A DNA stretch of 51,206 bases from an uncultured Clostridia bacterium (lineage in GTDB: Bacteria; Bacillota; Clostridia; Oscillospirales; CAG-272): NCBI GenBank assembly GCA_904501715.1, contig CAJGCD010000001.1, positions 1 to 51,206 of the forward strand, given 5' to 3'. The number at the start of each line of letters is the position of its first letter. Within the stretch, counting starts at the first letter, position 1. Shown in pieces: positions 421-28,092 of this stretch. A program made the translations under genes and the position numbers. Under the pieces are notes generated by a model, which saw only the letters and a list, made by a program, of their open reading frames with translations, had not been told where the DNA came from and made no database searches.

Positions 421-2283
421 TCACTTTGTAACGCGAAGAACTATACCGTCGCATTTTGGTATAGGCTTATTCAGCTCTCCGTATATCTCCTCTACTCTCC
501 AGCCTTCCTTTACAGAAGGATCAAACACTCTTTCTGTATCGGAATAGTTGATGGCAGTAACAATATAGCTATCATCGTTTTCCCTGCTCTGCGTCACGCA
601 TATCTGCGGGTCGTTACTCTTGATGACATAATTGTCTGTAAGCGTACCCGCAAACTCCTTGTATATCTTATAATAAGGAGCACTTTTATCCGGATTAAAG
701 CCGTGAGTCTGCTCTATTGCAATAAGCTCGGGAGTGAAATTCAAGAAGTAGACCTCTCCCTTTCCAAGCTTATTCCTTGAAAATACGATATTTCCGTTCT
801 CATTGGTCGCCAACACCTCCGCGCCTACAGATTCAAGCAGAAGCTCCTTTGCGGGGGTATATTGTATATCCCCAAAGGAGAAATGCGCCATATGAGTGCT
901 TCCCCTTTGCATACCCTTTGAGGTAAGTCCCGTAACTCTGTCAAACTCGGTCATGTGACCGCCGTAGTAGGTAATAAGAAGCTTAGCCCCCTTGTTCTCT
1001 ACACTGTCAAGAATTGCGTCGTAGGTACGGCGGAATGTGACCTCCCACCCCTCTATGGCGGGAAGTATATACGCGCCGGATTCAGAAGGGATACCGTCAC
1101 AGTTTTCGATACGAATATTGAAGCCAGCCTGCTTGGAAAGTATGTATGCGCCTGCGGCGCGGATATATTTTTCACCTCTGGGCAACACGCATACCGCGTC
1201 TGTATCCTTAGGTCCGATAGGGGGAAGCATGCTGAGCATCTCAGCCGATTTTTTCATCTGCTTTCCAACGGGCTTAGGCGCAAGCTCCTTATCCACAAGC
1301 CCCAGCTCACGCTCGTTCATTCCCCACGCGTAGGGCGCGTGCTTGAGGAGCAGATGCTCCATTCCGCACCACCAAAGATATCCCGTAAGATTATTCGCCC
1401 AAGCAGAAATCACATTCACCCGCAAAAAGTTAGCCGCCATCTCGCGGTTTCCTATTGCGTCGGAGAAGGTTCCCTGCTCCTGTATCATACAAGGCTTTCC
1501 ACCTATACCCGAATAAAACTCGCTTTGCGCTGTGGGAAGCATAGTAGTGCGCAGACCATTGTAAGGCTCTATATCACCTTTTATAGAGGGAGAAGGATAG
1601 GGGTGTGTACATAAAATGTCGCAAAGCTCACCTTGGTCCTCAATTCTCCACGCACCGCTCTCGGTATTAAGTCCGTGCATACCCGAGGATATGGGTCGCG
1701 TGCCGTCCACCGAGCGTATAGCGTTCACCATAAACGCGGTCCATTCATAGGCAAGATGCCGGTCAGACACCTTTTCAAGGCAGTTGCACTCGTTACCTAT
1801 ATCCCAGATGATTATATTATCTATGTCCTTAAGAGCGGAAACTATACCCTTTACGTATCTGTCTGTCCACCTTCTGACCTCGTGGTCGGAGATCAGATTT
1901 TTGCCTTCAAGAGCGGGAGGCGCGAACATTCTTCCGCTCATCCATCCCGTAAGGATAGACACGGTGATATCCATAGAAAACTCTTTTGCGATAGATGCAA
2001 ATTTTCTGAAGCGCTCTATCATAACGGGGTCTATTCCGTTACATTCGGGAGTCATATATTCCTCATTCTCCCCGAAAGCGTATTCCCTAAAATCATTAGT
2101 CCATCCGTACAGCTTTTTTATAGGTTGAAAATCCCGCCAATTGGGAAATACCCGCAAGTGAGTCACTCCGCATTCCTTAAGGGCGGTCAGGTCCTCTCTT
2201 ACGGTCTTTTCATCCCAGTTTTTCCACATTTCGGTTCCAGATTTGGAATCCCAATAGTTACAGCCAAGTAGAAATCTATTCAT
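421..2283 (-). CDS. Clan GH-A (GH5-like TIM-barrel) glycoside hydrolase with C-terminal beta-sandwich domains; no signal peptide
   Basis: 620-aa ORF. The N-terminus LGCNYWDSKSGTEMWKNWDE...GVTHLRVFPNWRDFQP is typical of (beta/alpha)8 glycosidases. WDIGNECN is the acid/base Glu motif and MIQEQGTF is a candidate nucleophile Glu. RBS AAAGGA lies upstream, 14 nt after the preceding gene. Confidence 0.7.
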   Translation of the reverse strand: MNRFLLGCNYWDSKSGTEMWKNWDEKTVREDLTALKECGVTHLRVFPNWRDFQPIKKLYGWTNDFREYAFGENEEYMTPECNGIDPVMIERFRKFASIAKEFSMDITVSILTGWMSGRMFAPPALEGKNLISDHEVRRWTDRYVKGIVSALKDIDNIIIWDIGNECNCLEKVSDRHLAYEWTAFMVNAIRSVDGTRPISSGMHGLNTESGAWRIEDQGELCDILCTHPYPSPSIKGDIEPYNGLRTTMLPTAQSEFYSGIGGKPCMIQEQGTFSDAIGNREMAANFLRVNVISAWANNLTGYLWWCGMEHLLLKHAPYAWGMNERELGLVDKELAPKPVGKQMKKSAEMLSMLPPIGPKDTDAVCVLPRGEKYIRAAGAYILSKQAGFNIRIENCDGIPSESGAYILPAIEGWEVTFRRTYDAILDSVENKGAKLLITYYGGHMTEFDRVTGLTSKGMQRGSTHMAHFSFGDIQYTPAKELLLESVGAEVLATNENGNIVFSRNKLGKGEVYFLNFTPELIAIEQTHGFNPDKSAPYYKIYKEFAGTLTDNYVIKSNDPQICVTQSRENDDSYIVTAINYSDTERVFDPSVKEGWRVEEIYGELNKPIPKCDGIVLRVTK

Positions 2284-2297
2284 AGGTAAATCCTTTC

Positions 2298-4319
2298 TTA
2301 AAGCTTTATTCGAGCTATCCTGTAATCAAAGCCGTCAAGCTCTATGGAGAGCTCGCTTGTATCGGATGCCATAGCATCCCCTGTTATAGCGTCGGTCACG
2401 CTCTGAGCCTTTTCGGGCAAAATGATGCTGACACATCCCGAAGGCTCGTTGACCATATTAGCCACAAAGCACAGCATTTCATTTCCTGCTTTATAGTAGC
2501 TGAATCTTACGCTGTCATCAGACACGCGTACGTCATTGTCGAAATACGGTCTCCACTGCGCCTCGCTTATGGGAAATTCATCAAGTGCTCTCCATACTCC
2601 GCTCATATCCTCAAGCGGCTGCTCAACGTCAACGGGCTTGGGGATTATACCAAATGGCAAAGCGTTTGCCATTGCCTGTCGGAAGGTCCACGTTGGAGGA
2701 TTTGAATAGCAGAGTATATTGATAGGAACTCCAAGATTTCTTCCCGTGTATACAGCTCTGTAATATTCCTCGGGAGCACGCTTCAGCTTTCCTTTAAGGA
2801 ATTCCCCTTGAACAGTCTCTCCGTCCCATAAGCAGTGCGAAAATGCGAGTGCCGCCACGGGGAAATTAGCAGAAGAGTGAGTACATATAGTTCCTCCGCG
2901 CTTTTCAACCATAGCGCAAAGTCGTTTCATCAGCTTTCTCACGGCAAATACGGGGTATGTCGTATGAAGCTTACCCTCTCTGTCGCGGTATCCGCAGCCA
3001 TGCTTTTCATTGTTGCAGGCTCTGCAGGTATTTATAGAATCCAGATACAGTCCGTCAAAGCCGAACTCGTCCATAAGCCTTTCCATAGCCTCTACGTATA
3101 TATCCTGCCACTCGCCGTTATAGCACACCTGAGGCGCTCGCTGCCAAGGGAAACGGTACCAATGCCAGCTTATATCCCCCACAAGATACTTTTCGTTATA
3201 CATAGGCGACATAGTGGATATCTCGTAGCCGAAATAAGGAATAACCTTCATTCCCCTCTTGTGCGCCTCCTCAACTATAAGCCTCAAGCGGTTTGCGCTC
3301 TCTACGGTGAGAAAGGGCGAATTCTGTATGTCGTTCCATTTTTCGTGTATGTAGAGCGTGTTGACTCCCATCCTCTTTATTCGGTCTATGACCGTCTCGG
3401 TATCTCCCGCAAGGGGCTTGAAAAGGAAATCCTCATAATTCTCGGGTATCTTCTTAAAGCAGTCTATATGCACGTTCTTTTCCGCGTAAGGGTTCTCGGG
3501 AAAGGGCTTTACGGGTGTGACCTGCATACCTATCCTGAAGGACAGCGGCATAAGGTTGTGTCCGCCGTTATCTCCCTTGTCGTACCAGGAAACGGGCTCG
3601 CTGTCCAAAAGATGTATGCGCACTATCACCGCATCGTCCTGTCTTACACATTCTATGACCCTCTTGCTATCGGCGGGCTGCCAATTTTCGTCGGATTCAA
3701 AGAATACCGAAAAGCCTATCTCATCATTGCCAAGGAACACCTGCTGAACGAAAGGCAGAGCAATACTCTCCTTTGGCATCGCGCCTATGTGATACATTAC
3801 GGGTAGCCCGTCGGGGATACTGCCGTCTATAATAGCCTCGCAGGCGGGTACGTATTGATATGAAGCGGCACATTCCTTCCTCAGAGGTATCTCAAGCCAA
3901 AGGCGGGTAAGCTCTCTTGCTCCCTTATCGCTTTCAGCCAGACCGAATGCCTGCGCGACCGTCGGTCCGTGGGTGGCTACCGTTATCCTCCAATCCATAC
4001 ATCCGTCATACTCGGCTTCAAGGGTAGTATTCATAATAAATCTCGGACTCTGCATATATTGGCAGGCGCTTACCGAGCTGCCGTCGTTACCGTACATAAG
4101 GCGGCTGCACACGTCGCTTATTACCAGCTCCTTGCCGTTTTCCGTACCGACCAAACGCATAGGAGCGGCTAAAAGCTCTTGTCCGCCCGATATTACAGAG
4201 GACAGAAGCGGCGAGGTGGACAAGGTATATTTTCTGTTCCATACGGATATTTCACAGCTTTTTCCGTCGCTGTCGGCTGTTATGGGCGTAAGCGACTTTA
4301 CCTCTAATTCCTTTTTCAT
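2298..4319 (-). CDS. Glycoside-hydrolase-like TIM-barrel protein of uncertain family (possibly GH123/DUF4091-like); no signal peptide
   Basis: 673-aa ORF with RBS AAAGGAGAAG. The central region VNTLYIHEKWNDIQNSPF...HKRGMKVIPYFGYE...FDGLYLDSIN...CLWDGE looks like a glycosidase barrel. The family assignment is from memory only. Confidence 0.55.
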   Translation of the reverse strand: MKKELEVKSLTPITADSDGKSCEISVWNRKYTLSTSPLLSSVISGGQELLAAPMRLVGTENGKELVISDVCSRLMYGNDGSSVSACQYMQSPRFIMNTTLEAEYDGCMDWRITVATHGPTVAQAFGLAESDKGARELTRLWLEIPLRKECAASYQYVPACEAIIDGSIPDGLPVMYHIGAMPKESIALPFVQQVFLGNDEIGFSVFFESDENWQPADSKRVIECVRQDDAVIVRIHLLDSEPVSWYDKGDNGGHNLMPLSFRIGMQVTPVKPFPENPYAEKNVHIDCFKKIPENYEDFLFKPLAGDTETVIDRIKRMGVNTLYIHEKWNDIQNSPFLTVESANRLRLIVEEAHKRGMKVIPYFGYEISTMSPMYNEKYLVGDISWHWYRFPWQRAPQVCYNGEWQDIYVEAMERLMDEFGFDGLYLDSINTCRACNNEKHGCGYRDREGKLHTTYPVFAVRKLMKRLCAMVEKRGGTICTHSSANFPVAALAFSHCLWDGETVQGEFLKGKLKRAPEEYYRAVYTGRNLGVPINILCYSNPPTWTFRQAMANALPFGIIPKPVDVEQPLEDMSGVWRALDEFPISEAQWRPYFDNDVRVSDDSVRFSYYKAGNEMLCFVANMVNEPSGCVSIILPEKAQSVTDAITGDAMASDTSELSIELDGFDYRIARIKL

Positions 4320-4330
4320 TTTCTTCTCCT

Positions 4331-6298
4331 TTAGTGCATTCTGAAATCCAGCTCCCGTGGGAGAGGATACTCGCCAAGTATCTCCTCCGCGCTAAGGCTA
4401 CACACATCCACATTCCTTTTTTTAGCCATTATCCAACCGTATATTTCGATCCAGATAGCCGAAAGCGAGTATTCGCCCTCCTTGATATCGTCTACCGTGA
4501 GAGAGGCGTTTATTATATCCGCGGCAAGCTCTGCTTCCCCAAGCCTTGAATAGCAGGCGCCCAGAAGCATTCTTACTCGTCCGTTTTCACGTATATCGGC
4601 GGGGAGAGTTTCGTAGAGCGACACCCATTCCCCATACCGCTCTGCCGCCATAAGAGCGTAGGCACATTCTATGGCAAGCGGCAAATAATCCTTTTTCAGC
4701 GAAAGTGCGGTCACCATATGCTCTGCCGCGCTGTCATAATCCCCTTCTATGTTTTTCTCTATCTGCGCAAGATTTCGGTAGCTCCAAGCATTTGCCTTAA
4801 GCTCTGCGGATTTAATAAAGCTATTCTTCGCCTTTGCTATATCTCCACCCGCGTAATACATCACACCTAACTGATTGTAGGCATACCAATCCTCTTTGAT
4901 ATTTTTGCCTAACAGCTCGGTCCAGAAGCTTCCCGTTACGTAGCTCGCTATAACGCTGTCAACAGAATGCTCGGGTAATGCTCCCGATTCCAAAAGCACG
5001 AGCCAATCTGTCTGCTCAGCGTCCATACTGTCCTCGGGAAAATGGCATATATGGCTGACGGGGACCTTTCTTATCTTGTTTTCAAGCGCGCCCCAGCCCG
5101 AGCCGTACAAAGCTATCTTGTCCTCTTCCACTATTTCAAAGGCATCCTTGACAAGCGACTTGTTTTTATTCGTCACAATGTCCGACACCTTGTCCGCGGC
5201 AGTACTGAAATCTCCGTGAGCCGCCTCGGGGTCAATGCTGAGCGCACAATAGCTCTCCCGCCATGATATACGGCTGTTGCCCTTCATAACGAAATGCTCA
5301 AGCTGTGTCTTCAGCAAGCCCGCCTGTATCTCTATATAGGCTCCCGCTTTATCGGAGAGCCACTCGTTCCAATGTCTTCCGCCCTCGTGCTGCCCCCATA
5401 CGAACATCTTTCTTCCCTTAAGTATTCGGTCCGAGGTCTGTAAAAGTCCCTTACCGTCCTTATCTGCCGTTGCTATCCATTTTTCGCTTTCGTCGGGGAT
5501 GTCAAAGAAGAAGTCTCTTGAGCGCGGAGAATTTACGGCATACGTAATATCTCTTCCGTCAACACAAGGCATCTGCGTTTTATCGAGAAAATATCCCCCG
5601 TCCTCGTATGCGCAGAAGAACATCTCATCAGCGGGAACTATAACACGGGTCTCTGGCGTTTCGGGAACGGCAATATTGGACCACCAATACATATAGGTTT
5701 CCTTGTCCGACGTATTTTCTATCGTAATATTGACCAACAGCTCTTTTTCACTGAGCGTTGCCTCAATAACGTACACTACCCCGCGTATGCGCTCGTATTC
5801 ATACATTCTGAGCACGGGCTCGCCCAGCTTATTCGTCACTTTTTGTGCAAACATAGGCGAGCAGGTCAGCGGATTATGTCCCTTTATACCTACGTTCCAT
5901 TCAACTCCGCCCGAAAACCACGCATTGCGCAAAGCAAGATTGGCAGGCTGAAAAACGTCGTTCTTATACAGAAGCTCTCGCTCCTCTGTTTTATCGTACA
6001 GCGACCAGAGCCTTCCGCCAAGCTCGGGTAAAAACACCGCTCTCACGTATTCGTTCTCAAGTATGGCGGCATCTATGCCTCTTTCTACTCTGTTTCGGTC
6101 GTATCCGTCGGTTATGCAATAGGGGAGCAGAGTATCTATCATTCCCTTTCCGATATACCTTCCGTCCTCTTTTGATATATTCTCACTAAGAGATATTTTA
6201 GCGCGTATGTAGCTGTTAACGTGTATGTCGGGCAAGCAGTTGTTTCTTCCCAAGTCTGCGGCAGGCATACTGTATTTCGTAAATAATAATTCTGTCAT
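4331..6298 (-). CDS. DUF5107 domain protein with a C-terminal TPR-repeat region
   Basis: I place the start at MTELLFTKY (ATG 6298, RBS GGAGGA 8 nt upstream) rather than the track's 6379. The N-terminal half (ENEYVRAVFLPELGGRLWSLYDK...NAWFSGGVEWNVG) matches my memory of DUF5107. The C-terminal 200 aa have TPR-like AxxYxxxG periodicity. Confidence 0.7.
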   Translation of the reverse strand: MTELLFTKYSMPAADLGRNNCLPDIHVNSYIRAKISLSENISKEDGRYIGKGMIDTLLPYCITDGYDRNRVERGIDAAILENEYVRAVFLPELGGRLWSLYDKTEERELLYKNDVFQPANLALRNAWFSGGVEWNVGIKGHNPLTCSPMFAQKVTNKLGEPVLRMYEYERIRGVVYVIEATLSEKELLVNITIENTSDKETYMYWWSNIAVPETPETRVIVPADEMFFCAYEDGGYFLDKTQMPCVDGRDITYAVNSPRSRDFFFDIPDESEKWIATADKDGKGLLQTSDRILKGRKMFVWGQHEGGRHWNEWLSDKAGAYIEIQAGLLKTQLEHFVMKGNSRISWRESYCALSIDPEAAHGDFSTAADKVSDIVTNKNKSLVKDAFEIVEEDKIALYGSGWGALENKIRKVPVSHICHFPEDSMDAEQTDWLVLLESGALPEHSVDSVIASYVTGSFWTELLGKNIKEDWYAYNQLGVMYYAGGDIAKAKNSFIKSAELKANAWSYRNLAQIEKNIEGDYDSAAEHMVTALSLKKDYLPLAIECAYALMAAERYGEWVSLYETLPADIRENGRVRMLLGACYSRLGEAELAADIINASLTVDDIKEGEYSLSAIWIEIYGWIMAKKRNVDVCSLSAEEILGEYPLPRELDFRMH

Positions 6299-6387
6299 TG
6301 TCTTATCCTCCGTTATACGTTTATTATAATGCCTGTGCTTTACGTATTCAATGTATAAACAGCTTGCTTTTTTGTACAAAATGACTT

Positions 6388-7149
6388 TTATTTCAAAGCT
6401 TCTCTATATCTTCCCGGAGTGCTTCCCGTTGCCGCCTTGAATTTTTTTGAAAAATGATATATATCGTAGTACCCGAGATGCTCGGCTATCTCCTTAAGCT
6501 TAAATTCTCCCGAGTCTATCATTGCCTTAGCCCGTGTCATCCTCAGCTCCTCGCGGTATTGCATTACAGAGCATCCAAGCTCCCTCCTGAAGCATAGCCG
6601 AAGATGCGAGGGGCTTATATTGCAGGCAGCCGAAATATCCTCAAGAGAAAAATTAACGTTGTAATGTCTGTGTATATATGCCAGCGCCGAGGATACACAA
6701 TTGCCCGCATCACCGCACTCCCCCGATATCCGCTTCATCATATCCATAAAGAGCTGTAAAAGCAGGATGCGTGCTTCTATATAGCAGTACTCTCCCTGCT
6801 CCTCCCACACTCTGCATATCCTTCGCACCGCGCTTATCTCCTCGGGGGTACAGTCGGTGACCTTTGGGAGCACTGTCCTCCCCTTAAGCAGAATATCCGC
6901 GTTGCTTGTAATATACGAACAAGGGTACGGAACGTCAAAGCTGTAGGAATCGCCCTCATCAAACCTGATAAACGTTCCCGCGCTTACCTTATTTACCTCG
7001 CCGCCGTAAAAAAAGCGTCCTTCTCCCGAAAGAAAGCAAACAAAGCCCGCGCCCTCTCTTGAACGTGTGGAGTATTTAAAATCCTCGCACTCGTCCTTCT
7101 TTACTATTACTCTTATGTCTCCTATATCTATGTCGCAAAAATAATTCAT
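6388..7149 (-). CDS. AraC/XylS-family transcriptional regulator (cupin sensor plus HTH)
   Basis: The C-terminal double HTH reads FSLEDISAACNISPSHLRLCFRRELGCSVMQYREELRMTRAKAMI...IAEHLGYYDIYHFSKKFKAATGSTPGRYR. Confidence 0.85.
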   Translation of the reverse strand: MNYFCDIDIGDIRVIVKKDECEDFKYSTRSREGAGFVCFLSGEGRFFYGGEVNKVSAGTFIRFDEGDSYSFDVPYPCSYITSNADILLKGRTVLPKVTDCTPEEISAVRRICRVWEEQGEYCYIEARILLLQLFMDMMKRISGECGDAGNCVSSALAYIHRHYNVNFSLEDISAACNISPSHLRLCFRRELGCSVMQYREELRMTRAKAMIDSGEFKLKEIAEHLGYYDIYHFSKKFKAATGSTPGRYREALK

Positions 7150-7233: not shown

Positions 7234-7271
7234 AAAAAAAGATAAAACGCGTCGAAAAACCGACGCGTTTT
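7234..7271 (-). terminator. Rho-independent terminator ending the GRE-activase unit
   Basis: Stem AAAACGCGTCG (7244-7254) / CGACGCGTTTT (7261-7271). On the minus strand it is followed by TTTTATCTTTTTTT. Confidence 0.7.
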
Positions 7272-7275
7272 GCTG

Positions 7276-8064
7276 TTAACTATTCTTTTTTTCTTTTATG
7301 AATTCCGCTCCCGCGTACTCTCTTCCCACGTTTTTGTATTTTACGGGGGCAAGCTCGTTGTAGGGCAGCTTTTCCCAAGGGTCCTCTCCCACTATTTGGG
7401 AGATGGCGCAAAGATTTTCGTAAGTATCGGTAATGTTAGGTATGAGAGGTGTCCTGAACGTATGCGGCTTTCCGCTTTTCTTCAGCCACGCGGCGTTTTC
7501 GAGTATTATTCCATTGTCAACACCCGTGTATTTCTTATGCGCGGCAGCCTCCGCCAGCTTTATGTCCATAAATACGAAGTCACAAAGCTCCGCCACTCTC
7601 TTAAAATCCTCCGCGGACGCATATCCCGAGGTTTCTATGGCAGTATGTATCCGTCCTCGCAAAATTGTGAGAAGCTCCGCGCAAAAATCTGCCTGAAGCA
7701 AGGGCTCACCGCCCGACAGCGTAACTCCTCCGCCCGTACTCCTGAAAAGTCCCTCATATTTCAACAGCTTACGAGAAAGTGCCTCGGCTTCCCACTCCTC
7801 GCCCGCTACACGCACCAAGTCCTGCGGACATATGTGAAGGCATCTGCCAAAATCCTTGCATTCCTCGTGATTACATTGTCTTTTGCACAGACCGCAGTGA
7901 GTGCAGTTTGCCTGCGACACGTATAGCTCTTTTTTAGGCGAAAGCCCCTCGGGATTATGACACCACACGCAGCGCAGAGGACATCCCTTCATAAAAACCG
8001 TAGTCCTTATTCCGCTCCCGTCGTGTACGGCAAACTCCTTGATATCAAAGACTAAGCCTTTCAT
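7276..8064 (-). CDS. Glycyl-radical enzyme activating enzyme (radical SAM)
   Basis: CPLRCVWCHNPE is the CxxxCxxC SAM cluster. CTHCGLCKRQC...CKDFGRCLHICP are ferredoxin-like auxiliary-cluster motifs. The ATG overlaps the GRE stop codon (ATGA at 8061-8064). Confidence 0.9.
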   Translation of the reverse strand: MKGLVFDIKEFAVHDGSGIRTTVFMKGCPLRCVWCHNPEGLSPKKELYVSQANCTHCGLCKRQCNHEECKDFGRCLHICPQDLVRVAGEEWEAEALSRKLLKYEGLFRSTGGGVTLSGGEPLLQADFCAELLTILRGRIHTAIETSGYASAEDFKRVAELCDFVFMDIKLAEAAAHKKYTGVDNGIILENAAWLKKSGKPHTFRTPLIPNITDTYENLCAISQIVGEDPWEKLPYNELAPVKYKNVGREYAGAEFIKEKKNS

Positions 8065-10031
8065 AGGCTGTATTCCTGACGAGCCATCACGTGGTCCTGA
8101 TACTCTCTGTCAAGCTCAACGAAATACGCCGACCATCCCCATATACGCACTATAAGCTGTCGGTAAGAATCGGGGTCTGCCTGTGCTGCCTTCAGCGTAT
8201 CGAGATTTATAGCGTTGAGCTGAAGCTGATGTCCACCTCTCTCAATAAAGTATTTTATCAGCATAGCAACCTTGGAAATACTGTCCTCGCTTGCGAACAC
8301 GCTTGAAGCAAGCTCAAGGGTAAGCGGACCTCCGTTTACAGTTCTTGTAAGGTCGTTGGCAGTGAAGGACTCTATGTCGCTGACAGGTCCCTTTACTTTC
8401 GCAAAAAGGCTGGGAGAGAAGTTAGTTCCAAATGCCTCGCCCTTTCGTCTTCCGTCGGCGGTAGCGCCTATATCGCGAGCGTGCCACAGATAGAACATAG
8501 CCGTACCCGTACCTGCTCTCCATACGCCGCCAAGACAGTTGCGCTTGCCCTCAAGAGCATCCGCGAAGCTATCAAGGAGAATGCCGCACATAGCGTCGGC
8601 ACGCTCCGAGTCAACACCCATCTTCGGCGCCTCATAACGGAGAGTGTGCAAGAGCTCGGGGTCGTTCTCAAAGTTTGCATCAAGGGCGGCTATAAGGCGC
8701 TCGGGGCTCACACTCTTTTCGTTATATACGTACTTCTCAACGCTCGCCAAAGCGTCAGCCGCAGAAGCAAGACCGCATCCGTGGAGTCCGAAATTGTTGT
8801 ACTTTTTAGCCTCTCTTAACAGATCCATAAAGGGAGATGCCACAAACCAAACATTGGCTATGCTCTCTCTTATTCTGTCACACTCGGCAGTTACTCTGCG
8901 CTTTACGTCACCAAGAAGCGCCTCAAAGCTTGACTTACCTATGTTCTCTCTTATAGCTGCATCAACGAGCTGAGGGAAATTTACCGCTCCGATATTGGCA
9001 ATATCATTTCCCACACCGGGAATTATAAACTCCCAGCACGCCGCAACAACGTAATTAACGGCATCCTCATAATCATATCCCAATCTTTGTAAGCCTTCTA
9101 TGACCACATCGTCGTTGGAATATTGCGGGAAACCAAGTCCCGCACGTGTAAGCTCCGTTCCCTTTTCAAATATGGAAAGAGGTGTTTTCTTGGAAACTCT
9201 CAAATTTATCTTAGGGTCGATAACGAGAAGATTTCTGCTGGCTTCGAGGCAGAGCTCGGAAAGCAGATTAAAGCAATCGTTTCCGTCCTTATCTATGCCG
9301 CCAAGAACCATACTCTGTCCGTTATCGCCCTGCTGAACACCAACGTAAAGGTCGCTGTCCTTATTAAAGGAAAGGAAGAAATCCTCAACGAGCTCAAGCG
9401 CACTCTCACGGGTATAAACGCCTGCATCCATATCATTTTTGAAATAAGGGTACATATACTGGTCAAATCGTCCTACCGTGTTGTGATAGTCACCCTCTAA
9501 CCACAGCGAATAATGAAGTATACGGAAGAACTGCAAAGCCTCGCGGAAGTTTCTCGCACCGTATCTGGGCACCTGAGTCAGCACCTCAACGATATCGCCC
9601 CTACCCATTCGCTTTGCTTCCTCAAGATATCTGTCCGAAAGGGCTATAATACTGTCAATTATACGCTTCTGATACTCGTCGGCAGACTCTCTGCGAGCAA
9701 GAAGACCCACCGAAATAGTCTTCTCGTACTCGGGAGAAAGATTGGATACGTATCCGAGCTCGTGAATATAATGCTCCTTTCGTATCTCTTTCCATTCTTT
9801 CTCGGTATAAACATCGGGCAGATTAGCCACAGTACGCATAAACACTATTTTTTCGTCCGAGTGAATGTGAGGCACTTCAAGAGATGAGAGATATTCAAAC
9901 CTACGCGTCATTCTCTCGGAGCTACACAGACCGAGAGCCGAATATTCAGATGAAAGCTCCTTATCCACCTTAAACCGCAATGCTCTGTGCTCTTTATTTA
10001 TAACGTAGTAGTCATATAAGCTCTTATTCAT
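8061..10031 (-). CDS. Glycyl radical enzyme (PFL-like superfamily, eliminase-type C-x-E active site), 656 aa, substrate unknown
   Basis: Start is MNKSLYDYY at 10031, with GGAG 7 nt upstream. GRE core motifs: REALQFFRILHYSLWLEG, GRFDQYMYPYF, Cys loop VVAACWEFIIPG, and Gly-radical loop LIVRIWGWSAYFVELD near the C-terminus. The track's 965-aa version extends upstream through the antisense strand of the GDPD gene, so I rejected it. Confidence 0.9.
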   Translation of the reverse strand: MNKSLYDYYVINKEHRALRFKVDKELSSEYSALGLCSSERMTRRFEYLSSLEVPHIHSDEKIVFMRTVANLPDVYTEKEWKEIRKEHYIHELGYVSNLSPEYEKTISVGLLARRESADEYQKRIIDSIIALSDRYLEEAKRMGRGDIVEVLTQVPRYGARNFREALQFFRILHYSLWLEGDYHNTVGRFDQYMYPYFKNDMDAGVYTRESALELVEDFFLSFNKDSDLYVGVQQGDNGQSMVLGGIDKDGNDCFNLLSELCLEASRNLLVIDPKINLRVSKKTPLSIFEKGTELTRAGLGFPQYSNDDVVIEGLQRLGYDYEDAVNYVVAACWEFIIPGVGNDIANIGAVNFPQLVDAAIRENIGKSSFEALLGDVKRRVTAECDRIRESIANVWFVASPFMDLLREAKKYNNFGLHGCGLASAADALASVEKYVYNEKSVSPERLIAALDANFENDPELLHTLRYEAPKMGVDSERADAMCGILLDSFADALEGKRNCLGGVWRAGTGTAMFYLWHARDIGATADGRRKGEAFGTNFSPSLFAKVKGPVSDIESFTANDLTRTVNGGPLTLELASSVFASEDSISKVAMLIKYFIERGGHQLQLNAINLDTLKAAQADPDSYRQLIVRIWGWSAYFVELDREYQDHVMARQEYSL

Positions 10032-10062
10032 ATGAATCTCCTTTTTTGTTTTTTTCAATTTG

Positions 10063-10071
10063 ATTATACCA
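10063..10071 (-). promoter_or_regulatory. Candidate extended -10 (TGGTATAAT) for the GRE operon; the -35 is poor, which suggests activator dependence
   Basis: The minus strand reads ...AAAGTGTGGTATAATCAAATTG about 30 nt upstream of the GRE ATG. No good TTGACA lies at 17 bp. Confidence 0.35.
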
Positions 10072-10112
10072 CACTTTATTGCATATTTCAGGCACTTTTT
10101 TGCAGATATACC

Positions 10113-10140
10113 TTGACATTCGGGTAAAAAGTGATATACT
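10113..10140 (+). promoter_or_regulatory. SigA-type promoter for the GDPD gene
   Basis: TTGACA (10113-10118), a 16-nt spacer, then TGATATACT (extended -10, 10132-10140). Confidence 0.5.
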
Positions 10141-10178
10141 AAAATCAACAAAAATAATATATGCCAAAGGAGATACTT

Positions 10179-11015
10179 ATGGATACCAAGGTTACACTTA
10201 CAGGTCACAGAGGATGGCGCGCAAAGTACCCCGAGAACACTATGCTGGGCTTCCGCAAGGCGCTTGAGATAGACGTTGACGCTATCGAGATGGACGCTCA
10301 TATGACCAAGGATTATCAGATAGTTGTCTGCCACGACGCAGACTTGGCACGCACCACCGACACCAAGGGAAAAATTTTCAATATGACCCTTGAGGAGGTA
10401 CGCAAGGCTGACGCGGGAATTAAATTCGGCGAGGAATTCAAGGGCGAAAAGGTTCCGACCTTCGAGGAGTTCGCCGAGCTTATGGCTACCCGCCCCGACG
10501 TAAAGCTTCTTCTTGAGCTTAAGGACTATCCCGAGGAGCTTGGCGATTTTGCGTATGCTTCGGCAGAGGCTACACTCTCTATCTGTAAGAAGTACGGCAT
10601 ATTCGGCAAGGACCGTCTTACCGTTATCACCTTCTCGGCAGGCATATGCGCATGGCTCAGAACCAGATACACAAAGGAGGACTTCTCCATCCACGGCTTC
10701 TATCCCAAGACCTGTATGAGAGGCTGGGAGAAGGACGACCCCTATAAGTACTATGATGAGGTATGCCTTTTCAACTGGGGCGACAAGACCCCTCAGGGCT
10801 TCCCCATAGACCACGGCACACCCGTAGCGGATAAGGCAAGATTTACCGAGTTTGCGCTTATGGGTATTAAGCCTTGCGTATATTACGGAATGAACACCGA
10901 CGAGAACGTTTACCGTCAGGCATTCGAGAATGGCGCCATAGGATTTACCTGTGACCACCCCGACGTCTGCGGTGAGATACTCGATAAGCTTGGCGCGCGT
11001 AAGCTTAAGAAATAA
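10179..11015 (+). CDS. Glycerophosphodiester phosphodiesterase (GDPD family), cytoplasmic
   Basis: I prefer the start MDTKVTL (ATG 10179, RBS AAAGGAGA). LTGHRGWRAKYPENTMLGFRKALEIDVDAIEMDAHMTKDYQIVVCHDADLARTTD is the GDPD signature. Confidence 0.85.
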   Translation: MDTKVTLTGHRGWRAKYPENTMLGFRKALEIDVDAIEMDAHMTKDYQIVVCHDADLARTTDTKGKIFNMTLEEVRKADAGIKFGEEFKGEKVPTFEEFAELMATRPDVKLLLELKDYPEELGDFAYASAEATLSICKKYGIFGKDRLTVITFSAGICAWLRTRYTKEDFSIHGFYPKTCMRGWEKDDPYKYYDEVCLFNWGDKTPQGFPIDHGTPVADKARFTEFALMGIKPCVYYGMNTDENVYRQAFENGAIGFTCDHPDVCGEILDKLGARKLKK

Positions 11016-11037
11016 TAACGCTTATATTTATAACCTA

Positions 11038-11066
11038 AAGAGTACGGATGAACTCCGTACTCTTTT
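11038..11066 (+). terminator. Rho-independent terminator
   Basis: Stem AAGAGTACGGA / TCCGTACTCTT with a 5-nt loop, followed by TT. Confidence 0.65.
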
Positions 11067-11114
11067 GACTATGTACTTAAAAGCTCAAAAAACCTGAAAA
11101 ATCCAAAAATTCTA

Positions 11115-11143
11115 TTTACAAATTTCGCCAATTGTGCTATACT
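11115..11143 (+). promoter_or_regulatory. SigA-type promoter for ygjV-azlCD
   Basis: TTTACA, a 17-nt spacer, then TGCTATACT (extended -10). Confidence 0.5.
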
Positions 11144-11175
11144 TTACTCCGTGATTATCTTTTGAGGAGCTTTTT

Positions 11176-11712
11176 ATGGAACTGACTGAAATAATAGGTC
11201 ATATACTCGGCTTCGTTGCTCTTATAGTAATATTTTTCACCTATCAGATGCGTGAAAAAAGGCTTATCATAGTTACCCAGACCGTATCTATAATCCTGAT
11301 GTGTCTGCAATACCTTCTCATAGGCGCTTACTCGGGATTTCTCTTGAACGTTGTATGCATAGTACGAAATATAGCCTACTATTACAAGGACAAAAAGCTT
11401 TTTTCCTCACCTCTTGTTCCCGCTGTATTTGCCGCCGCTATTATCGGCTTGAGCATATTCTCCTGGGAGGGCTATTACTCGGTATTTATGATACTTGCGC
11501 TCTCCATAAATACTCTTTGCCTTGGATACTTCGGCCCTCAAAAGCTCCGCGTCAGCCTTTTGTTTACCTGCACCTGCGCTATAATATACGATCTTTTCGT
11601 AGGCTCCGTGACAGGTATTGCTTTTGAGTCCATAGCCATAATCTCTGCCATCGTCGGCATAATACGCTTTACTAAGGACAGCACATCTCAATCAAAAAAG
11701 GATAAGCAATGA
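11176..11712 (+). CDS. YgjV-family inner-membrane protein
   Basis: A 178-aa, roughly 6-TM protein. The N-terminal pattern IGFVALIVIFFTYQMREKR...LLIGAYSGFLLNVVCIVRN resembles YgjV. Confidence 0.55.
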   Translation: MELTEIIGHILGFVALIVIFFTYQMREKRLIIVTQTVSIILMCLQYLLIGAYSGFLLNVVCIVRNIAYYYKDKKLFSSPLVPAVFAAAIIGLSIFSWEGYYSVFMILALSINTLCLGYFGPQKLRVSLLFTCTCAIIYDLFVGSVTGIAFESIAIISAIVGIIRFTKDSTSQSKKDKQ

Positions 11713-12428
11713 CTAAAAAACAATGGTTTGCCAAGGGAGCAATGGCGGGTATTCCCATTTCTCTGGGTTACTTTGCCGTAGCAATCGCCTTGGGTATTTC
11801 AGCAAAAAAAGCAGGAATAAGTGTGCTTCAGGCATCGGTCACCAGCCTGCTCATAAACGCATCCGCGGGCGAATACGCAGGCTTTACTCTCATCGCGGCG
11901 GGCGCTACCTATCTTGAAGTAATATTTATGGAAGCAGTCGCCAACGCCAGATATCTGCTTATGTCCACGGCGCTCAGCCAGAGACTGGAGCCGGGCACGG
12001 GAATATTAAAACGGCTTTTATTGGGCTTTACCGTCACCGACGAGATATTCGGCGTATCCATAGGACTTGACGGCTACGTCAGCCCCTATTTCACCTACGG
12101 CGCATTCGTGGTGGCTACCTGCGGATGGACGTCGGGAACTATGTTCGGCGCTTTGCTGGGCGAGATATTACCCTCAAGCGTAGTCAGTGCGCTCAGCGTA
12201 GGACTTTTCGGAATGTTCATATCGATATTTATCCCCGAGGCAAAGAAAAACAAGATAGTTGCCGCTCTGGTAGTTATCAGCTTTGCCGTGTCGCTTACCT
12301 TCGCTAAGCTGCCTTACATCTCGGATATCCCCGAGGGCATAAGAGTCATAATCATTACTGTTCTTATCTCGGTAGGCGCGGCGCTCCTCTTCCCCATCAA
12401 AGAAAAGGAGGAAAGCGAAAATGGATAA
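11709..12428 (+). CDS. azlC: AzlC-family branched-chain amino acid exporter subunit
   Basis: GIPISLGYFAVAIALGISAKKAGIS...NASAGEYAG is typical of AzlC. It overlaps ygjV by 4 nt and azlD by 8 nt. Confidence 0.8.
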   Translation: MTKKQWFAKGAMAGIPISLGYFAVAIALGISAKKAGISVLQASVTSLLINASAGEYAGFTLIAAGATYLEVIFMEAVANARYLLMSTALSQRLEPGTGILKRLLLGFTVTDEIFGVSIGLDGYVSPYFTYGAFVVATCGWTSGTMFGALLGEILPSSVVSALSVGLFGMFISIFIPEAKKNKIVAALVVISFAVSLTFAKLPYISDIPEGIRVIIITVLISVGAALLFPIKEKEESENG

Positions 12429-12771: not shown

Positions 12772-15584
<2,813 letters not shown>

Positions 15585-17061: not shown

Positions 17062-18636
17062 ATGGACGGAAATACTATTCAGATTTTGATATCAATGGTA
17101 ATCTACATGGCAGTAGTTATCGGTATCGGAATCATATTCGCAAAAAGAGCAAACGCAAGCTCTGAAAACTACTTTTTGGGAGGCCGCTCGCTTGGACCTT
17201 GGGTCACCGCTATGAGCGCAGAGGCTTCCGACATGAGCGGATGGCTTTTGATGGGCCTTCCCGGTGTAGCATACTGGTGCGGTCTTGCCGACGCGGCGTG
17301 GACTGCTATCGGTCTTGCTATCGGTACTTATTTTAACTGGCTGATAGTTTCAAAGAGACTTCGCCGTTACAGTGTAAGAGCCAATAACTCTATCACTCTT
17401 CCCGAATTTTTCTCTAACAGATTCCGCGAGAAGAACAAGGTCATAATGACTCTCGCCGCAGCGTTCATACTCATATTCTTCACTGTATACGCTGCAAGCT
17501 GCTTCGTTACCTGCGGAAAGCTCTTCTCCACTCTTTTCGGCACTCCCTACATCGCTATGATGCTTCTTGGTGCCGTATTCGTTCTGGTCTACACCATACT
17601 CGGCGGCTTCCTTGCAGAAAGTGCCTCTGACTTTATGCAGGCTATCGTAATGATAGTGGCACTCGTAGTCGTTGTAGTTCTGGGTACTGTGACCGCAGGA
17701 GGTATAGGTGCCGTTATAGATAACGCCAACAATATCCCCGGATTTCTTGATTTCTTCGGCCTTGCCACACCCGTTACCAACGAGGCAGGTGAGCAGGCTG
17801 TTATCGCGGGAACACCTATTTTCGGTGAGGCTTCCCCCTACGGTATCCTCACTATCTGCTCAATGATGGCTTGGGGTCTCGGCTACTTCGGTATGCCTCA
17901 GGTCCTCCTCCGCTTTATGGCTATCCGCCGCGAGGACGAGCTCAAGCGCTCAAGACGCATAGCTATGGTCTGGGTAGTTATCTCCCTTAGTGTTGCCGTA
18001 TTTATAGGAATTATGGGCAGACAGCTCTTCCCTGTGGCTCACGTTACAAAATCGGCAGCTGAGAATATCTTTATCACCCTTTCCACAAAGCTTCTTCCTC
18101 CCCTTCTCGCGGGATTTGTAATGGCGGGAATTCTTGCGGCTACCATAAGCTCCTCCGATTCCTATCTTCTCATTGCCGCTTCGGCGTTCTCCAAAAACGT
18201 ATTCCAAGGAATACTCAAGAAGAACGCTACCGACAAGCAGGTAATGTGGGTATCGAGAATAACCCTTCTTGCTATCGCGGTAATCGCCGCTATTATAGCT
18301 CTTGACGAAAACAGCGTTATCTTCACTATCGTATCCTTTGCGTGGGCAGGCTTCGGAGCGACCTTTGGTCCTCTTATGCTCTTCTCTCTCTTCTGGAAGA
18401 GAACGACACAGGCAGGCGCTATCGCGGGTATGATAGGCGGCGCGGGCATGGTATTCCTCTGGAAGCTTGTGCTCAATCCCCTTGGCGGAGTGTTCGCTAT
18501 ATACGAGCTTCTTCCCGCGTTCATCTTCTCTGCTATCTGCATAGCTGTAGTATCTCTTCTTACCAAGAAGCCCTCCGCTGAAGTAGAGGAAGACTTCGAG
18601 GCTGTAAAGCATGGCACAGAGGACGTTTTAGTCTGA
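17062..18636 (+). CDS. putP: Sodium/proline symporter (SSS family)
   Basis: YFLGGRSLGPWVTAMSAEASDMSGWLLMGLPGVAY closely matches the PutP signature. The protein is 524 aa with about 13 TM segments. Confidence 0.9.
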   Translation: MDGNTIQILISMVIYMAVVIGIGIIFAKRANASSENYFLGGRSLGPWVTAMSAEASDMSGWLLMGLPGVAYWCGLADAAWTAIGLAIGTYFNWLIVSKRLRRYSVRANNSITLPEFFSNRFREKNKVIMTLAAAFILIFFTVYAASCFVTCGKLFSTLFGTPYIAMMLLGAVFVLVYTILGGFLAESASDFMQAIVMIVALVVVVVLGTVTAGGIGAVIDNANNIPGFLDFFGLATPVTNEAGEQAVIAGTPIFGEASPYGILTICSMMAWGLGYFGMPQVLLRFMAIRREDELKRSRRIAMVWVVISLSVAVFIGIMGRQLFPVAHVTKSAAENIFITLSTKLLPPLLAGFVMAGILAATISSSDSYLLIAASAFSKNVFQGILKKNATDKQVMWVSRITLLAIAVIAAIIALDENSVIFTIVSFAWAGFGATFGPLMLFSLFWKRTTQAGAIAGMIGGAGMVFLWKLVLNPLGGVFAIYELLPAFIFSAICIAVVSLLTKKPSAEVEEDFEAVKHGTEDVLV

Positions 18637-18700: not shown

Positions 18701-19531
18701 TTATCCAAGGCTGTCTCTTCGGACCTCCTTGGGGGATTTATGAAAGGTATCGCGGCATACCTGATCAAAGGAGCGGATACTCTGAAATCCACTCTCAAAG
18801 CATATACGGGATATGGGAAGGTCGGTATCCTGAAGCATAGCGTAAGCATGCTCTAATCGGTACTGATTGAGCATCTTTTTGAAATTCATACCTATAACCC
18901 GATTAAATATCCTCGAAAGATATTGGTAATTGTACCCCTTTTCTCTCGCAACGTCCCGCAAAGTAATATCCCTTTTGAAATTTTCGGCAATATACTGAGC
19001 CACCGCCATAGTGACTGCGTCAGCAGTAGGGGTGGGCACGAGTTCGGTCCTGTCAAGAAGCTCTCCTCCCAGCATATAAAGACAGCCCTTTACCTGCATA
19101 CGTATCTGGTGAGGTGCTATGCGTATGCACAGCCCGCTGTCCTTACCAAAGAACTCTTCCATTTTGTCAAGAAAAAATCTCATAAGAGACTCACTTGGAT
19201 GAAAAACGCAGGTTTTGGGTCTTCTCCCGTCAAGAGTTTGGGAAAGAGTAAGGATAAGATGATCATGGAAGGTCACTCTTCGTACGGCGGACTCCTCCTT
19301 TATGGAAAAGCTATGTATCTGGAACGGGCTTACGAATATAGCGTCACCCACCTCAAGCAAATACTCCTGACCGCCCACCGAACATTGGCAGCATCCCTTT
19401 ATGACCATAAGGAACTCAAAATTCTTATGAAAATGCGGAGATTCGAAATCCAAAGCGCTGTTATCGTAAACATACGTAGAAAATTCCGAATTAAAGGTAT
19501 TTTCGGTCTGGTGATATAAGCTTTTCTTCAT
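18701..19531 (-). CDS. AraC/XylS-family transcriptional regulator
   Basis: Start is MKKSLYHQT (ATG 19531, RBS GGAGGG), not the track's 19621. It has an N-terminal cupin domain. The C-terminal HTH reads ITLRDVAREKGYNYQYLSRIFNRVIGMNFKKMLNQYRLEHAYAML...ICFESGFQSIRSFDQVCRDTFHKSPKE. Confidence 0.8.
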   Translation of the reverse strand: MKKSLYHQTENTFNSEFSTYVYDNSALDFESPHFHKNFEFLMVIKGCCQCSVGGQEYLLEVGDAIFVSPFQIHSFSIKEESAVRRVTFHDHLILTLSQTLDGRRPKTCVFHPSESLMRFFLDKMEEFFGKDSGLCIRIAPHQIRMQVKGCLYMLGGELLDRTELVPTPTADAVTMAVAQYIAENFKRDITLRDVAREKGYNYQYLSRIFNRVIGMNFKKMLNQYRLEHAYAMLQDTDLPISRICFESGFQSIRSFDQVCRDTFHKSPKEVRRDSLG

Positions 19532-19659
19532 ATTAACCCTCCGCAAAAAGTCAACTTCCTGCCATAAATCATACATTAAATGTTTTGTTTTGTCAAGTAT
19601 TATATGGTAAATTATATACATGATCTGCTATTTTAAAAGCAAACAAAGGAGACACGAAC

Positions 19660-23103: not shown

Positions 23104-23132
23104 TTGACATAACCCTTCAAATGTTATATAAT
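23104..23132 (+). promoter_or_regulatory. Consensus SigA promoter of the rnf operon
   Basis: TTGACA (23104-23109), exactly 17 nt, then TATAAT (23127-23132). A second GATTGACATAA copy lies 28 nt upstream. Confidence 0.6.
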
Positions 23133-23201
23133 ATATGTGACGTTGAAAAACCAACGGCTTTTTGCCTAAAACATTATACAAAAAGAAAGGCAGGTACAGA
23201 A

Positions 23202-27255: not shown

Positions 27256-27266
27256 GGAGGTATAAT

Positions 27267-28088: not shown

Positions 28089-28092
28089 TCTT

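Follow-up and report, generated by a model that had tools for sequence, protein, structure and literature searches.

A compact glycyl radical enzyme (GRE) of the CXE class (1,2-eliminase/isomerase), served by a dedicated compact activase and acting on a neutral carbohydrate, is with moderate confidence the best reading of a gene pair in the 51,206-nt stretch of DNA analysed here (the window). The neighbourhoods of related loci and the residues of the predicted pocket indicate that the substrate is most likely a free hexose or a small sugar derivative. It would be freed by GH36-type alpha-galactosidases or other glycosidases from plant oligosaccharides or hemicellulose. From the same two lines of evidence we infer that glycerol, propanediol, choline, hydroxyproline and sulfonate are not the substrate.

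The GRE gene and its two-gene operon

The following features were located in the window:

8061..10031, minus strand: GRE coding sequence, 656 aa, with PFL-like and Gly_radical domains (Pfam, homologue lengths, predicted barrel fold)
10038..10042, minus strand: ribosome-binding site AGGAG, 6 nt 5' of the GRE ATG (sequence read directly)
10063..10091, minus strand: promoter-like CTGAAA-17-TATAAT with TG extension, about 30 nt 5' of the GRE start (consensus match only)
9030..9038, minus strand: Cys loop C332-W333-E334, with the thiyl-radical Cys and the CXE glutamate (invariant; aligns with C433-V-E435 of glycerol dehydratase, GD)
8133..8147, minus strand: Gly loop R629-I-W-G632-W633, with the radical-storing Gly between two Trp (invariant; aligns with RVAGY of GD, PflD, CutC and HypD)
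8061..8064, minus strand: ATGA overlap of GRE stop and activase start, translational coupling (sequence read; related loci commonly show gaps between -3 and about +20 nt)
7276..8064, minus strand: coding sequence of the GRE-activating radical-SAM enzyme, 262 aa (TIGR02494, 249.1 bits against a cut-off of 174.35; next to the GRE gene in 68 of the 78 related loci)
7960..7983, minus strand: radical-SAM cluster motif of the activase, C28-X3-C32-X2-C35 (invariant in 67 sequences)
7828..7905, minus strand: condensed auxiliary Fe-S insert of the activase, C54x2C57x2C60x3C64x4C69x5C75x3C79-P (all seven Cys invariant)
7244..7271, minus strand: intrinsic-terminator-like hairpin with a 12-bp stem and a T-run, 5 nt after the activase stop (sequence read)

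The HMM search proposed in the initial annotation of this DNA detected both the PFL-like (PF02901, E 4e-74) and the Gly_radical (PF01228, E 3e-16) domains in the 656-aa protein, the C-terminal end of which reads ...YRQLIVRIWGWSAYFVELDREYQDHVMARQEYSL. A longer mechanical ORF over the gene counts 965 aa, with a GTG start at 10958. It was discarded because its upstream in-frame part runs antisense to a GDPD gene (10161-11015, plus strand, Pfam E 3e-34) and because homologues have about 656 aa. Close homologues, which form more than 120 clusters at 90% identity, all measure 654-660 aa and all share the same start Met. The small size of the GRE is genuine: as the antisense GDPD gene and the starts of the homologues indicate, the region upstream does not code for GRE and the short protein does not result from a mis-assigned start. 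Every statement made in the initial annotation on the sequence of this gene was reproduced.

The 262-aa protein contains the Pfam domains Radical_SAM and Fer4_12 and the motif C28PLRC32VWC35HNPE followed by further Cys. Its assignment to TIGR02494 (PFLE_PFLC) rests on a score above the cut-off and on the presence of CX3CX2C. The ferredoxin-like insert of canonical GRE-activating enzymes holds eight extra Cys (two auxiliary clusters), whereas seven invariant Cys within 26 residues were found here; the relatives of the activase range from 251 to 275 aa. The earlier description of a radical-SAM activase with auxiliary-cluster motifs, whose start overlaps the GRE stop, is correct. Judging from their layout, both genes form a real two-gene operon, in which the pair stands alone between the promoter-like site and the strong terminator-like hairpin.

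Catalytic loops, predicted fold and active-site pocket

Residues 328-339 of the GRE read VVAACWEFIIPG, with the C332 codon at 9038-9036 and the E334 codon at 9032-9030, and GRFDQYMYPYF corresponds to residues 187-197. Conservation was evaluated on 37 family members, 69-92% identical to the window GRE. C332, W333, E334, R629, I630, W631, G632 and W633 are invariant in this set, as are more than 200 columns in total, and the length is conserved. The C-x-E Cys loop, GRFDQYMYPYF and R-I-W-G-W were thus all correctly reported in the initial annotation. The enzyme had also been called motif-divergent there, RIWGW lying outside the stricter PROSITE pattern as given in that annotation. The Trp on both sides of the radical Gly are real, but the term is overstated because RVXG[FWY] is the fingerprint applied today. 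The window GRE fits it with Ile for Val, W being allowed both at X and at the following position, and the RVWG[WF] loop is widespread, being common to a very large set of uncharacterised GREs.

The AlphaFold model of the GRE (pLDDT 80, pTM 0.85) predicts a normal ten-stranded beta/alpha barrel. Structure prediction had been recommended in the initial annotation, and retention of the GRE barrel is borne out by Foldseek, which aligned the model to 50 GRE chains with TM 0.75-0.84 (about 0.8 to all eliminases/isomerases). Three loops, namely those of the Cys and the Gly and the one at 228-238, have a pLDDT below 50. About 126 residues are missing in the form of discrete peripheral deletions, which trim the channel loop after beta1 and, by about 60 residues, the N-terminal helices used for dimerisation.

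Mapping of the substrate contacts of GD on the window GRE gave the replacements H164 to N97, S282 to N184, D447 to N346, Y640 to G509 and S642 to A511, while Y339 is deleted. The residues that stand in their place are polar or small and invariant in the 37 sequences (N97, H183, N184, Q233, Q234, D236, N237, Q239, D343, N346, T508, G509 and T510).

Proposed reaction

The invariant C332-W-E334 places the enzyme in the CXE (1,2-eliminase/isomerase) class, as defined in a 2026 review. The review agrees with the initial annotation that a CXE loop marks the eliminase branch, and it also assigns the newer GRE isomerases to it. In this class a hydroxyl of the substrate hydrogen-bonds to the CXE Glu, and a C-O, C-N or C-S bond beside the radical carbon is cleaved; the window GRE would most likely be a radical C-O eliminase or isomerase. 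If it works like the characterised CXE GREs, the activase would use SAM and its [4Fe-4S] cluster to abstract a hydrogen from G632, and the stored glycyl radical would give rise to a thiyl radical on C332. C332 would then take a hydrogen from a hydroxyl-bearing carbon of the substrate and E334 would deprotonate the same hydroxyl, yielding a ketyl radical. An adjacent C-O bond, to a hydroxyl or to a ring or glycosidic oxygen, would be expelled before the product radical regains its hydrogen from C332. Since the general-acid His of classical dehydratases is replaced by Asn, the leaving-group chemistry is probably different in detail.

We tentatively suggest, as a possibility of somewhat less than even chance, that the reaction is an undescribed one for GREs, namely radical C-O cleavage on an unphosphorylated hexose or small glycoside. 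It could take the form of dehydration, ring-opening isomerisation or glycosidic-bond lysis. A conceivable substrate would be galactose or an alpha-galactoside-derived sugar, the defined anomer of which would be supplied by a mutarotase-like partner. The enzyme-by-enzyme sections of the 2026 review, as far as covered here, list no GRE acting on an unphosphorylated sugar.

Gene neighbourhoods of related loci

The genes around the pair in the window code for AraC, a DUF5107/TPR protein, a GHL-type protein, a GH5_18-like protein and GDPD. They are singletons among 80 related loci and are not conserved across loci; therefore, function was deduced from recurrent neighbours. A PDB search with the 673-aa neighbour protein gave no match. 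The same inspection of the 51-kb window yielded only an AraC gene of the recurrent type (18701-19621), a GH2 and the GDPD, and no homologue of RafSyn, Melibiase or DUF4867.

A labelled glycosidase of any family occurs within five genes on either side in 32 of 78 related loci, and AraC or LacI in 31. Alpha-galactosidases (GH36 or GH4) were detected within the same distance in 24 loci, about two thirds of the 78 having none nearby. The neighbourhoods are also enriched in sugar transporters and putative mutarotases. In many loci a GH36 gene of the Raffinose_syn type directly follows the activase with gaps of 0-26 nt; the best solved relative of this recurrent neighbour is a plant alkaline alpha-galactosidase (E 1e-51). 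DUF4867, a cupin proposed as sugar mutarotase or ring isomerase, is encoded between or after GRE and activase in six of the 78 loci. GRE relatives at 46-51% identity adjoin a Sugar_tr transporter with an aldose 1-epimerase, or GH125-GH3, or a sugar ABC transporter with SIS and AraA. The glycosidases are heterogeneous (GH36, GH4, GH2, GH127, GH51, GH43, GH78, GH125 and GH3) and therefore do not indicate a single sugar. No conserved kinase, aldolase or dehydrogenase of a downstream pathway was found among the related loci.

Family distribution and significance

The window GRE is not a one-off, since its family is present in at least 584 species genomes. It typifies a family mostly of herbivore and human gut Clostridia, the hosts being mainly Oscillospiraceae, Acutalibacteraceae, Ruminococcaceae and Lachnospiraceae from ruminant, chicken, mouse and human guts. 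An orthologue is encoded by Ructibacterium gallinarum DSM 107454. No characterised member was found in searches of the literature on GREs, anhydroglycolysis and DUF4867. A rough NJ tree shows the RVWGW clade as monophyletic and sets it apart from the long RVAGY clade. The family belongs to a wider RVWG[WF]/ACWE clade.

While a GRE with its activase is a known type of system, this large family has never been characterised and makes a promising starting point in the search for new sugar chemistry of anaerobes. As read from gene arrangement, co-transcription with genes for alpha-galactosidases and other glycosidases recurs in it, and the identity of its substrate could show how fibre-degrading anaerobes process plant sugar by radical chemistry. 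If the undescribed C-O cleavage proves true, it would represent a new anaerobic route of sugar utilisation shared by hundreds of gut Clostridia. The RVWG[WF] clade as a whole would then be a sugar-directed branch of GREs, including biosynthetic and possibly nucleotide-sugar-modifying members. Among PFL-like GREs, the window pair would moreover offer the smallest combination of enzyme and activase on which mechanism and structure could be studied, with an activase carrying a seven-Cys mini-ferredoxin insert.

Alternative explanations

That the enzyme is a diverged B12-independent dehydratase for glycerol or 1,2-propanediol, supplied with glycerol from plant galactolipids or glycerophosphodiesters by esterases, alpha/beta-galactosidases and GDPD, is unlikely. 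GD is the top PDB match (E 2e-80 with the family profile), the GDPD gene is the divergent neighbour of the GRE in the window and in two other loci, and SGNH esterases, GH36 and GH2 recur nearby, which are enzymes for stripping galactolipids to glycerol. Every substrate-contact position of GD is altered, however, and Gly and Ala in place of Y640 and S642 point to a pocket larger than a C3 substrate would need. The score with TIGR01774 (PFL2-3) is 274.7 bits against a cut-off of 678.2, and GD, PflD, HypD, PD and CutC score almost equally. Neither a recurrent 1,3-propanediol or aldehyde dehydrogenase in the 78 loci nor microcompartment shell genes among the annotated recurrent clusters were recognised. 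Very unlikely is a sulfosugar C-S lyase, releasing sulfite from the sulfoquinovose or sulfofructose of plant sulfolipid. DUF4867 (SftX) typically marks sulfoglycolysis clusters as an accessory gene and lies inside some GRE-activase operons, but these are few, and most DUF4867 proteins occur in ordinary aldose/ketose clusters. The hosts are herbivore gut bacteria, and the recurrent GH36 neighbour shows a weak sub-threshold match to GH31, GH36 and the GH31 sulfoquinovosidases being members of one clan, GH-D; its closest match, though, is the alkaline alpha-galactosidase. For the sulfonate triad Arg/Gln/Arg found in IslA, IseG and HpsG, correspondences deduced through GD give no counterpart: G509 would stand at the place of the second triad Arg (IslA R678), and N97/E101 in the beta1 segment. 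Among the neighbouring genes, neither a sulfite exporter nor a reductase was noticed.

The public records name two family members pyruvate formate-lyase (NCBI), and the Pfam domain is called PFL-like; that the enzyme has this activity is nevertheless extremely improbable. The loop A-C-W-E has a single Cys followed by X-Glu and no Cys-Cys pair, TIGR01255 scored 57 bits against 994, and PFL structures were the weakest full-length GRE matches (E 1e-15). From these sequence features, the name in the public records is wrong. Hardly any credence is given to a decaying or non-catalytic remnant that has lost about 130 residues. The protein is shorter than any characterised PFL-like GRE, and the loops holding Cys and Gly are poorly predicted; yet length and invariant columns are kept across the 37 sequences, the family is widespread, the deletions are confined to discrete peripheral blocks that leave the predicted barrel in place, and the activase is conserved and coupled.

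Comparison with known GREs

The preferred reading, a compact CXE-class GRE for a neutral carbohydrate, was compared with characterised systems. No GRE of known substrate clusters with the window GRE, whose identity to all the eliminases and isomerases is about 30%; for the best solved structures this value holds over alignments that are partial. With NCBIfam, HypD scored 257 bits against 1100 and CutC 198 against 1050; overall, the HypD, CutC, HpfG/HpsG, indoleacetate decarboxylase and HPA decarboxylase equivalogs gave 158-257 bits against cut-offs of 1000-1150, and the YjjI family gave no match. GD, HypD, CutC, HpfG/HpsG and decarboxylase identities were ruled out by these cut-offs together with the residue mapping. 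The proposal in the initial annotation that the protein fits no recognised substrate class is supported by these data, and none of the three findings named there as refuting it was observed.

Glycerol dehydratase (C. butyricum DhaB1, 1R8W/1R9D) and propanediol dehydratase (5I2A) are the top sequence matches and have the same PFL-like barrel. They share the CXE loop (with V in GD where W333 stands), RFDQYMYPY, an R-V/I-x-G-aromatic Gly loop and a partner activase with auxiliary Fe-S cysteines. GD differs by its length of 787 aa, by an identity of about 30% over the aligned parts and by the diol-pathway gene context, which is lacking here. CutC, HypD and the isethionate and DHPS sulfite-lyases show the same fold and CXE logic (Foldseek E 1e-35 to 1e-28), but their equivalog scores are 4-6 fold below cut-off and their substrate-specific residues are absent.

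YbiW and PflD (8ID7, 8ID0, 8YJO) are the sole characterised GREs known to act on carbohydrates. They convert 1,5-anhydroglucitol-6-P and 1,5-anhydromannitol-6-P to 1-deoxyfructose-6-P by CXE chemistry, in which a C2 ketyl radical precedes cleavage of a sugar C-O bond. Their match to the window GRE (E 1e-71, TM 0.81-0.84) resembles the eliminase scores, and their crystals lack the canonical N-terminal dimer, the N-terminal helices being the region trimmed in the window GRE. They differ in length (765-810 aa), in the RVAGY loop and in their 6-phosphate substrates. Their genes are found in PTS/aldolase operons, unlike those of the window family. The latter have as neighbours glycosidases, sugar importers of the MFS and ABC types and mutarotase-like genes, and neither a kinase nor an aldolase recurs beside them.

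The window GRE also resembles the uncharacterised RVWG[WF]/ACWE[FP] superclade, the members of which have 640-750 aa. In both, a Trp precedes the radical Gly and another follows the thiyl Cys; they also agree in having Asn where His164 would stand in beta1 and in being shortened. Other branches of the superclade lie in sugar-transport/isomerase operons or in polysaccharide and natural-product biosynthesis clusters; sugar catabolism is therefore not a valid description clade-wide. No other branch is as compact as the window subfamily (RIWGW, 654-660 aa), whose context is catabolic and rich in glycosidases.

Organisation of the GRE-activase pair

The pair consists of a glycyl radical enzyme (GRE) and its radical-SAM activase, both encoded on the minus strand.

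10091 to 10063, minus: promoter-like site CTGAAA-17-TATAAT, TG-extended, 5' of the pair (consensus match)
10031 to 8061, minus: GRE, 656 aa, ATG start six nt after AGGAG
GRE residues 187-197: core segment GRFDQYMYPYF
GRE residues C332 and E334: Cys loop VVAAC332WE334FIIPG
GRE residues R629-W633: Gly loop LIVR629IWG632W633SAYFVELD
8064 to 8061, minus: ATGA overlap of the GRE stop codon TGA and the activase start, four bases in common
8064 to 7276, minus: activase, 262 aa, with C28PLRC32VWC35HNPE
7271 to 7244, minus: terminator, 12-bp stem, 3' of the pair

The 656-aa coding sequence, the single Cys in C332-W-E334, the R-I-W-G-W loop and the ATGA overlap with the 262-aa activase were all recovered as initially annotated. 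With a promoter-like site on the 5' side and a terminator on the 3' side, the pair is predicted to be a self-contained two-gene operon. Pfam identified PFL-like (E 4e-74) and Gly_radical (E 3e-16) domains in the GRE, and Radical_SAM and Fer4_12 domains in the activase, which scored 249 bits against the NCBIfam GRE-activase model TIGR02494 (cut-off 174). Because the C/E/G triad is conserved and an activase is coupled, sequence analysis makes a functional radical enzyme near-certain.

A mechanical ORF of 965 aa was rejected as the GRE gene, being an artefact whose extension runs antisense to a divergent GDPD gene (10161-11015). Back-to-back promoter-like sites (10063-10140) were found within the 129-nt gap between GRE and GDPD, the one on the GDPD side (plus strand) being TTGACA-16-TATACT with 11/12 matches. 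Common regulation of both genes is possible, and GDPD was found close to the GRE in two further loci.

Compact size and predicted fold

Translation of the upstream in-frame stretch as part of a normal-length enzyme, an objection raised initially, is contradicted by its antisense position and by the length of the homologues. Among the 120 best clusters in a collection of 5.8 billion proteins (68-92% identical), nearly all measured 654-660 aa, and an alignment of 37 homologues displayed more than 200 invariant columns, including C332, W333, E334 and R629-I-W-G-W633. The small size is genuine. Alignment with GREs of 775 aa or more revealed deletions only, 126 residues in total, and no insertions.

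After residues 68-86: about 60 residues in four blocks, helices preceding beta1
After residues 123 and 144: 20 and 11 residues, downstream of beta1
After residues 363, 394 and 407: 15, 5 and 11 residues, behind the Cys loop

A 2026 review of GREs describes the pre-barrel helices as a conserved dimer interface and assigns a loop after beta1 to the channel through which BSS admits its substrate. Since the trimmed regions have these roles in other GREs, changed oligomerisation and substrate access are plausible by analogy.

When the AlphaFold2 model (pLDDT 80.3, pTM 0.85) was compared with all solved GRE eliminases, isomerases, decarboxylases and succinate synthases, each superposed on it with a query-normalised TM of 0.73-0.84. 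The superposition of this predicted model indicates that the barrel is kept and contradicts a degenerate, barrel-less protein. Values of pLDDT below 50 were confined to residues 228-238, 329-345 (Cys loop) and 626-640 (Gly loop), precisely the most conserved segments, including the invariant VQQGDNGQ loop (228-238); the shallow alignment of 37 closely related sequences may account for this.

Relation to characterised GREs

The closest solved relatives, glycerol dehydratase (GD), PflD, HypD, propanediol dehydratase and CutC, scored about equally (family profile E 1e-80 to 1e-64; about 30% identity over aligned parts), which contradicts clustering with any one GRE of known substrate. None of the NCBIfam GRE models passed its cut-off, all scores being far below (bits/cut-off: TIGR01774 275/678, HypD 257/1100, HpfG 236/1000, CutC 198/1050, PFL 57/994). 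The GD residue H164, the proposed general acid, is replaced by N97, H281-S282 by H183-N184, D447 by N346, Y640 by G509 and S642 by A511; Y339 is lost with a deleted stretch next to the invariant loop V232-Q-Q-G-D-N-G-Q239. By sequence mapping, the residues substituted in the pocket are either polar (Asn, Gln, Asp, Thr, His) or small (Gly, Ala). The low scores and the replaced glycerol-binding residues place the enzyme, on sequence criteria, in the Cys-x-Glu (CXE) class and outside all characterised substrate families, in line with the initial proposal of an eliminase-branch GRE fitting no known substrate class. The public name 'pyruvate formate-lyase' is wrong for this family, the protein having a single Cys.

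The Gly loop had been called motif-divergent. Trp indeed flanks Gly632 on both sides; however, compared with the currently used fingerprint, RVXG[FWY], the sole departure is that Ile stands in place of Val. In a set of 150 representatives clustered at 50%, very many sequences had an RVWGW (about 640-700 aa) or RVWGF (about 690-745 aa) loop, accompanied by an ACWE[FP] Cys loop and by Asn in the beta1 column that corresponds to 'His164'. W333, W631 and W633 around the radical relay are therefore best read as a clade signature, not as peculiar to this GRE. In a rough NJ tree, RVWGW sequences formed one clade joined to one RVWGF clade; the remaining RVWGF sequences branched elsewhere, and all RVWG[WF] sequences stood apart from the long RVAGY ones. 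A literature search found no paper characterising this family. The suggested uncharacterised clade is supported.

Distribution and gene neighbourhoods

With one genome per GTDB species, at least 584 genomes were found to encode a GRE relative. Nearly all of the best 80 (61-77% identical) belonged to Clostridia MAGs (Oscillospiraceae, Acutalibacteraceae, Ruminococcaceae, Lachnospiraceae, Erysipelotrichaceae, Christensenella) recovered from the guts of yak, deer, goat, sheep, buffalo, mouse and human; a single isolate, Ructibacterium gallinarum DSM 107454, was among them. The sole non-Firmicute record of the 80, titled Paludibacteraceae bacterium (locus L062), lies on a 3.7-kb contig, so that faulty binning or horizontal transfer may explain it.

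ORFs were called in the 80 loci and clustered, with counts made over 78. The activase adjoined the GRE in 68/78 loci, and 70 loci had room for it downstream. In L003, L008, L013, L031, L036 and L044, crude ORF calling gave no adjacent activase despite such room; either it lies elsewhere in the genome or the gene may have been missed by the calling. In 31/78 loci there was an AraC-type regulator, transcribed divergently, or a LacI. A GH36 Raffinose_syn/Sip1-type protein (Pfam E 2e-58; closest solved relative Arabidopsis alkaline alpha-galactosidase 7EXF, E 1e-51) was encoded in 20 loci, often directly 3' of the activase (gaps 0-26 nt), a GH36 melibiase in 9 and GH4 in 2. Taken together, alpha-galactosidase-type genes (GH36/GH4) occurred within five genes on either side in 24/78 loci; assuming a few such genes in each genome, the enrichment would by rough estimate exceed ten-fold. 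Other recurrent neighbours were GH2, GH78 rhamnosidase (Pfam), SGNH and alpha/beta esterases, MFS and ABC sugar importers, and three clusters assigned by visual inspection to GH127, GH51 and GH43. DUF4867, described as a cupin metalloprotein and proposed sugar mutarotase or ring isomerase, was found between or just after GRE and activase in 6 loci. In L078 (uncultured Acetatifactor sp., about 10001-11989), two family pairs lie side by side (AE-GRE, GRE-AE), followed by a GH36 Raffinose_syn-type gene, which indicates local paralogue expansion.

More distant relatives were found in the arrangements activase-GRE-Sugar_tr-aldose 1-epimerase (51% identity), GDSL-GH125-GH3-GRE-activase-AraC-ABC (50%) and sugar ABC-activase-GRE-TIM-SIS-...-AraA (46%). 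Relatives of 34-42% identity with RVWGF/RVWGW loops (L087/L088, or P0159, and L089, or P0148) reside in polysaccharide clusters (UDP-galactopyranose mutase GLF, glycosyltransferases, NDP-sugar epimerases/dehydratases) or natural-product-like ones (B12-radical-SAM, GT2, adenylation/carrier proteins), which hints that these GREs modify sugars biosynthetically.

In the window, a glycan-related four-gene operon (421-7149, minus) lies directly 3' of the terminator; none of its genes reappeared next to the GRE at any of the other 80 loci.

6388-7149, minus: AraC regulator
4331-6379, minus: DUF5107+TPR protein
2298-4319, minus: 673-aa GHL-type protein, weak GHL6/DUF6259/GH123_N hits, no PDB relative found
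421-2283, minus: 620-aa GH5_18-like beta-mannosidase/mannanase

The AraC type usually divergent from family GREs is located about 9 kb off (18701-19621, minus), divergent from a 1112-aa Laminin_G_3 and metallophosphoesterase protein (19660-22998). A GH2 LacZ-type beta-galactosidase (12772-15381, minus) and a sodium:solute symporter (17062-18636, plus) lie less than 8 kb from the GRE, with AzlC/AzlD and YgjV membrane proteins in between. An Rnf-type ion-translocating ferredoxin:NAD oxidoreductase operon (23121-31158) fits a host from the Clostridia that lives strictly anaerobically.

23121-24512: RnfC (Pfam-confirmed)
24512-25435: RnfD (Pfam-confirmed), followed by four short ORFs in the order expected of Rnf, candidate Rnf genes
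30097-31158: ApbE flavin transferase

Possible substrate and comparison with known systems

The CXE motif predicts the ketyl-radical, beta-C-X-cleavage logic common to eliminases and isomerases. That the His general acid has been lost speaks against simple dehydration of the GD or HypD type. The polar and small pocket residues, the consistently carbohydrate-related neighbourhoods and two unrelated putative mutarotases as partners together suggest that the substrate is a neutral sugar, taken in one particular ring or anomeric form. Less well supported are glycerol released from galactolipids, a sulfosugar and PFL chemistry. For this subfamily the first choice would be galactose or a compound derived from an alpha-galactoside, a tentative guess of rather low probability.

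The activase is compact as well. According to the review, a ferredoxin-like domain that contributes eight further Cys is present in most GRE activases; this family has seven in a mini-insert: 67 family activases, mostly 251-275 aa, share 10 invariant Cys, three of radical-SAM and seven in a 26-residue insert (Cx2Cx2Cx3C-x4-C-x5-C-x3-CP). The GRE-activase family is a solid lead for enzyme discovery and a moderate, not exceptional, surprise for the specialist. What is new is the compact form of a CXE GRE that is linked to sugars and paired with a mini-ferredoxin activase; the system is not categorically new.
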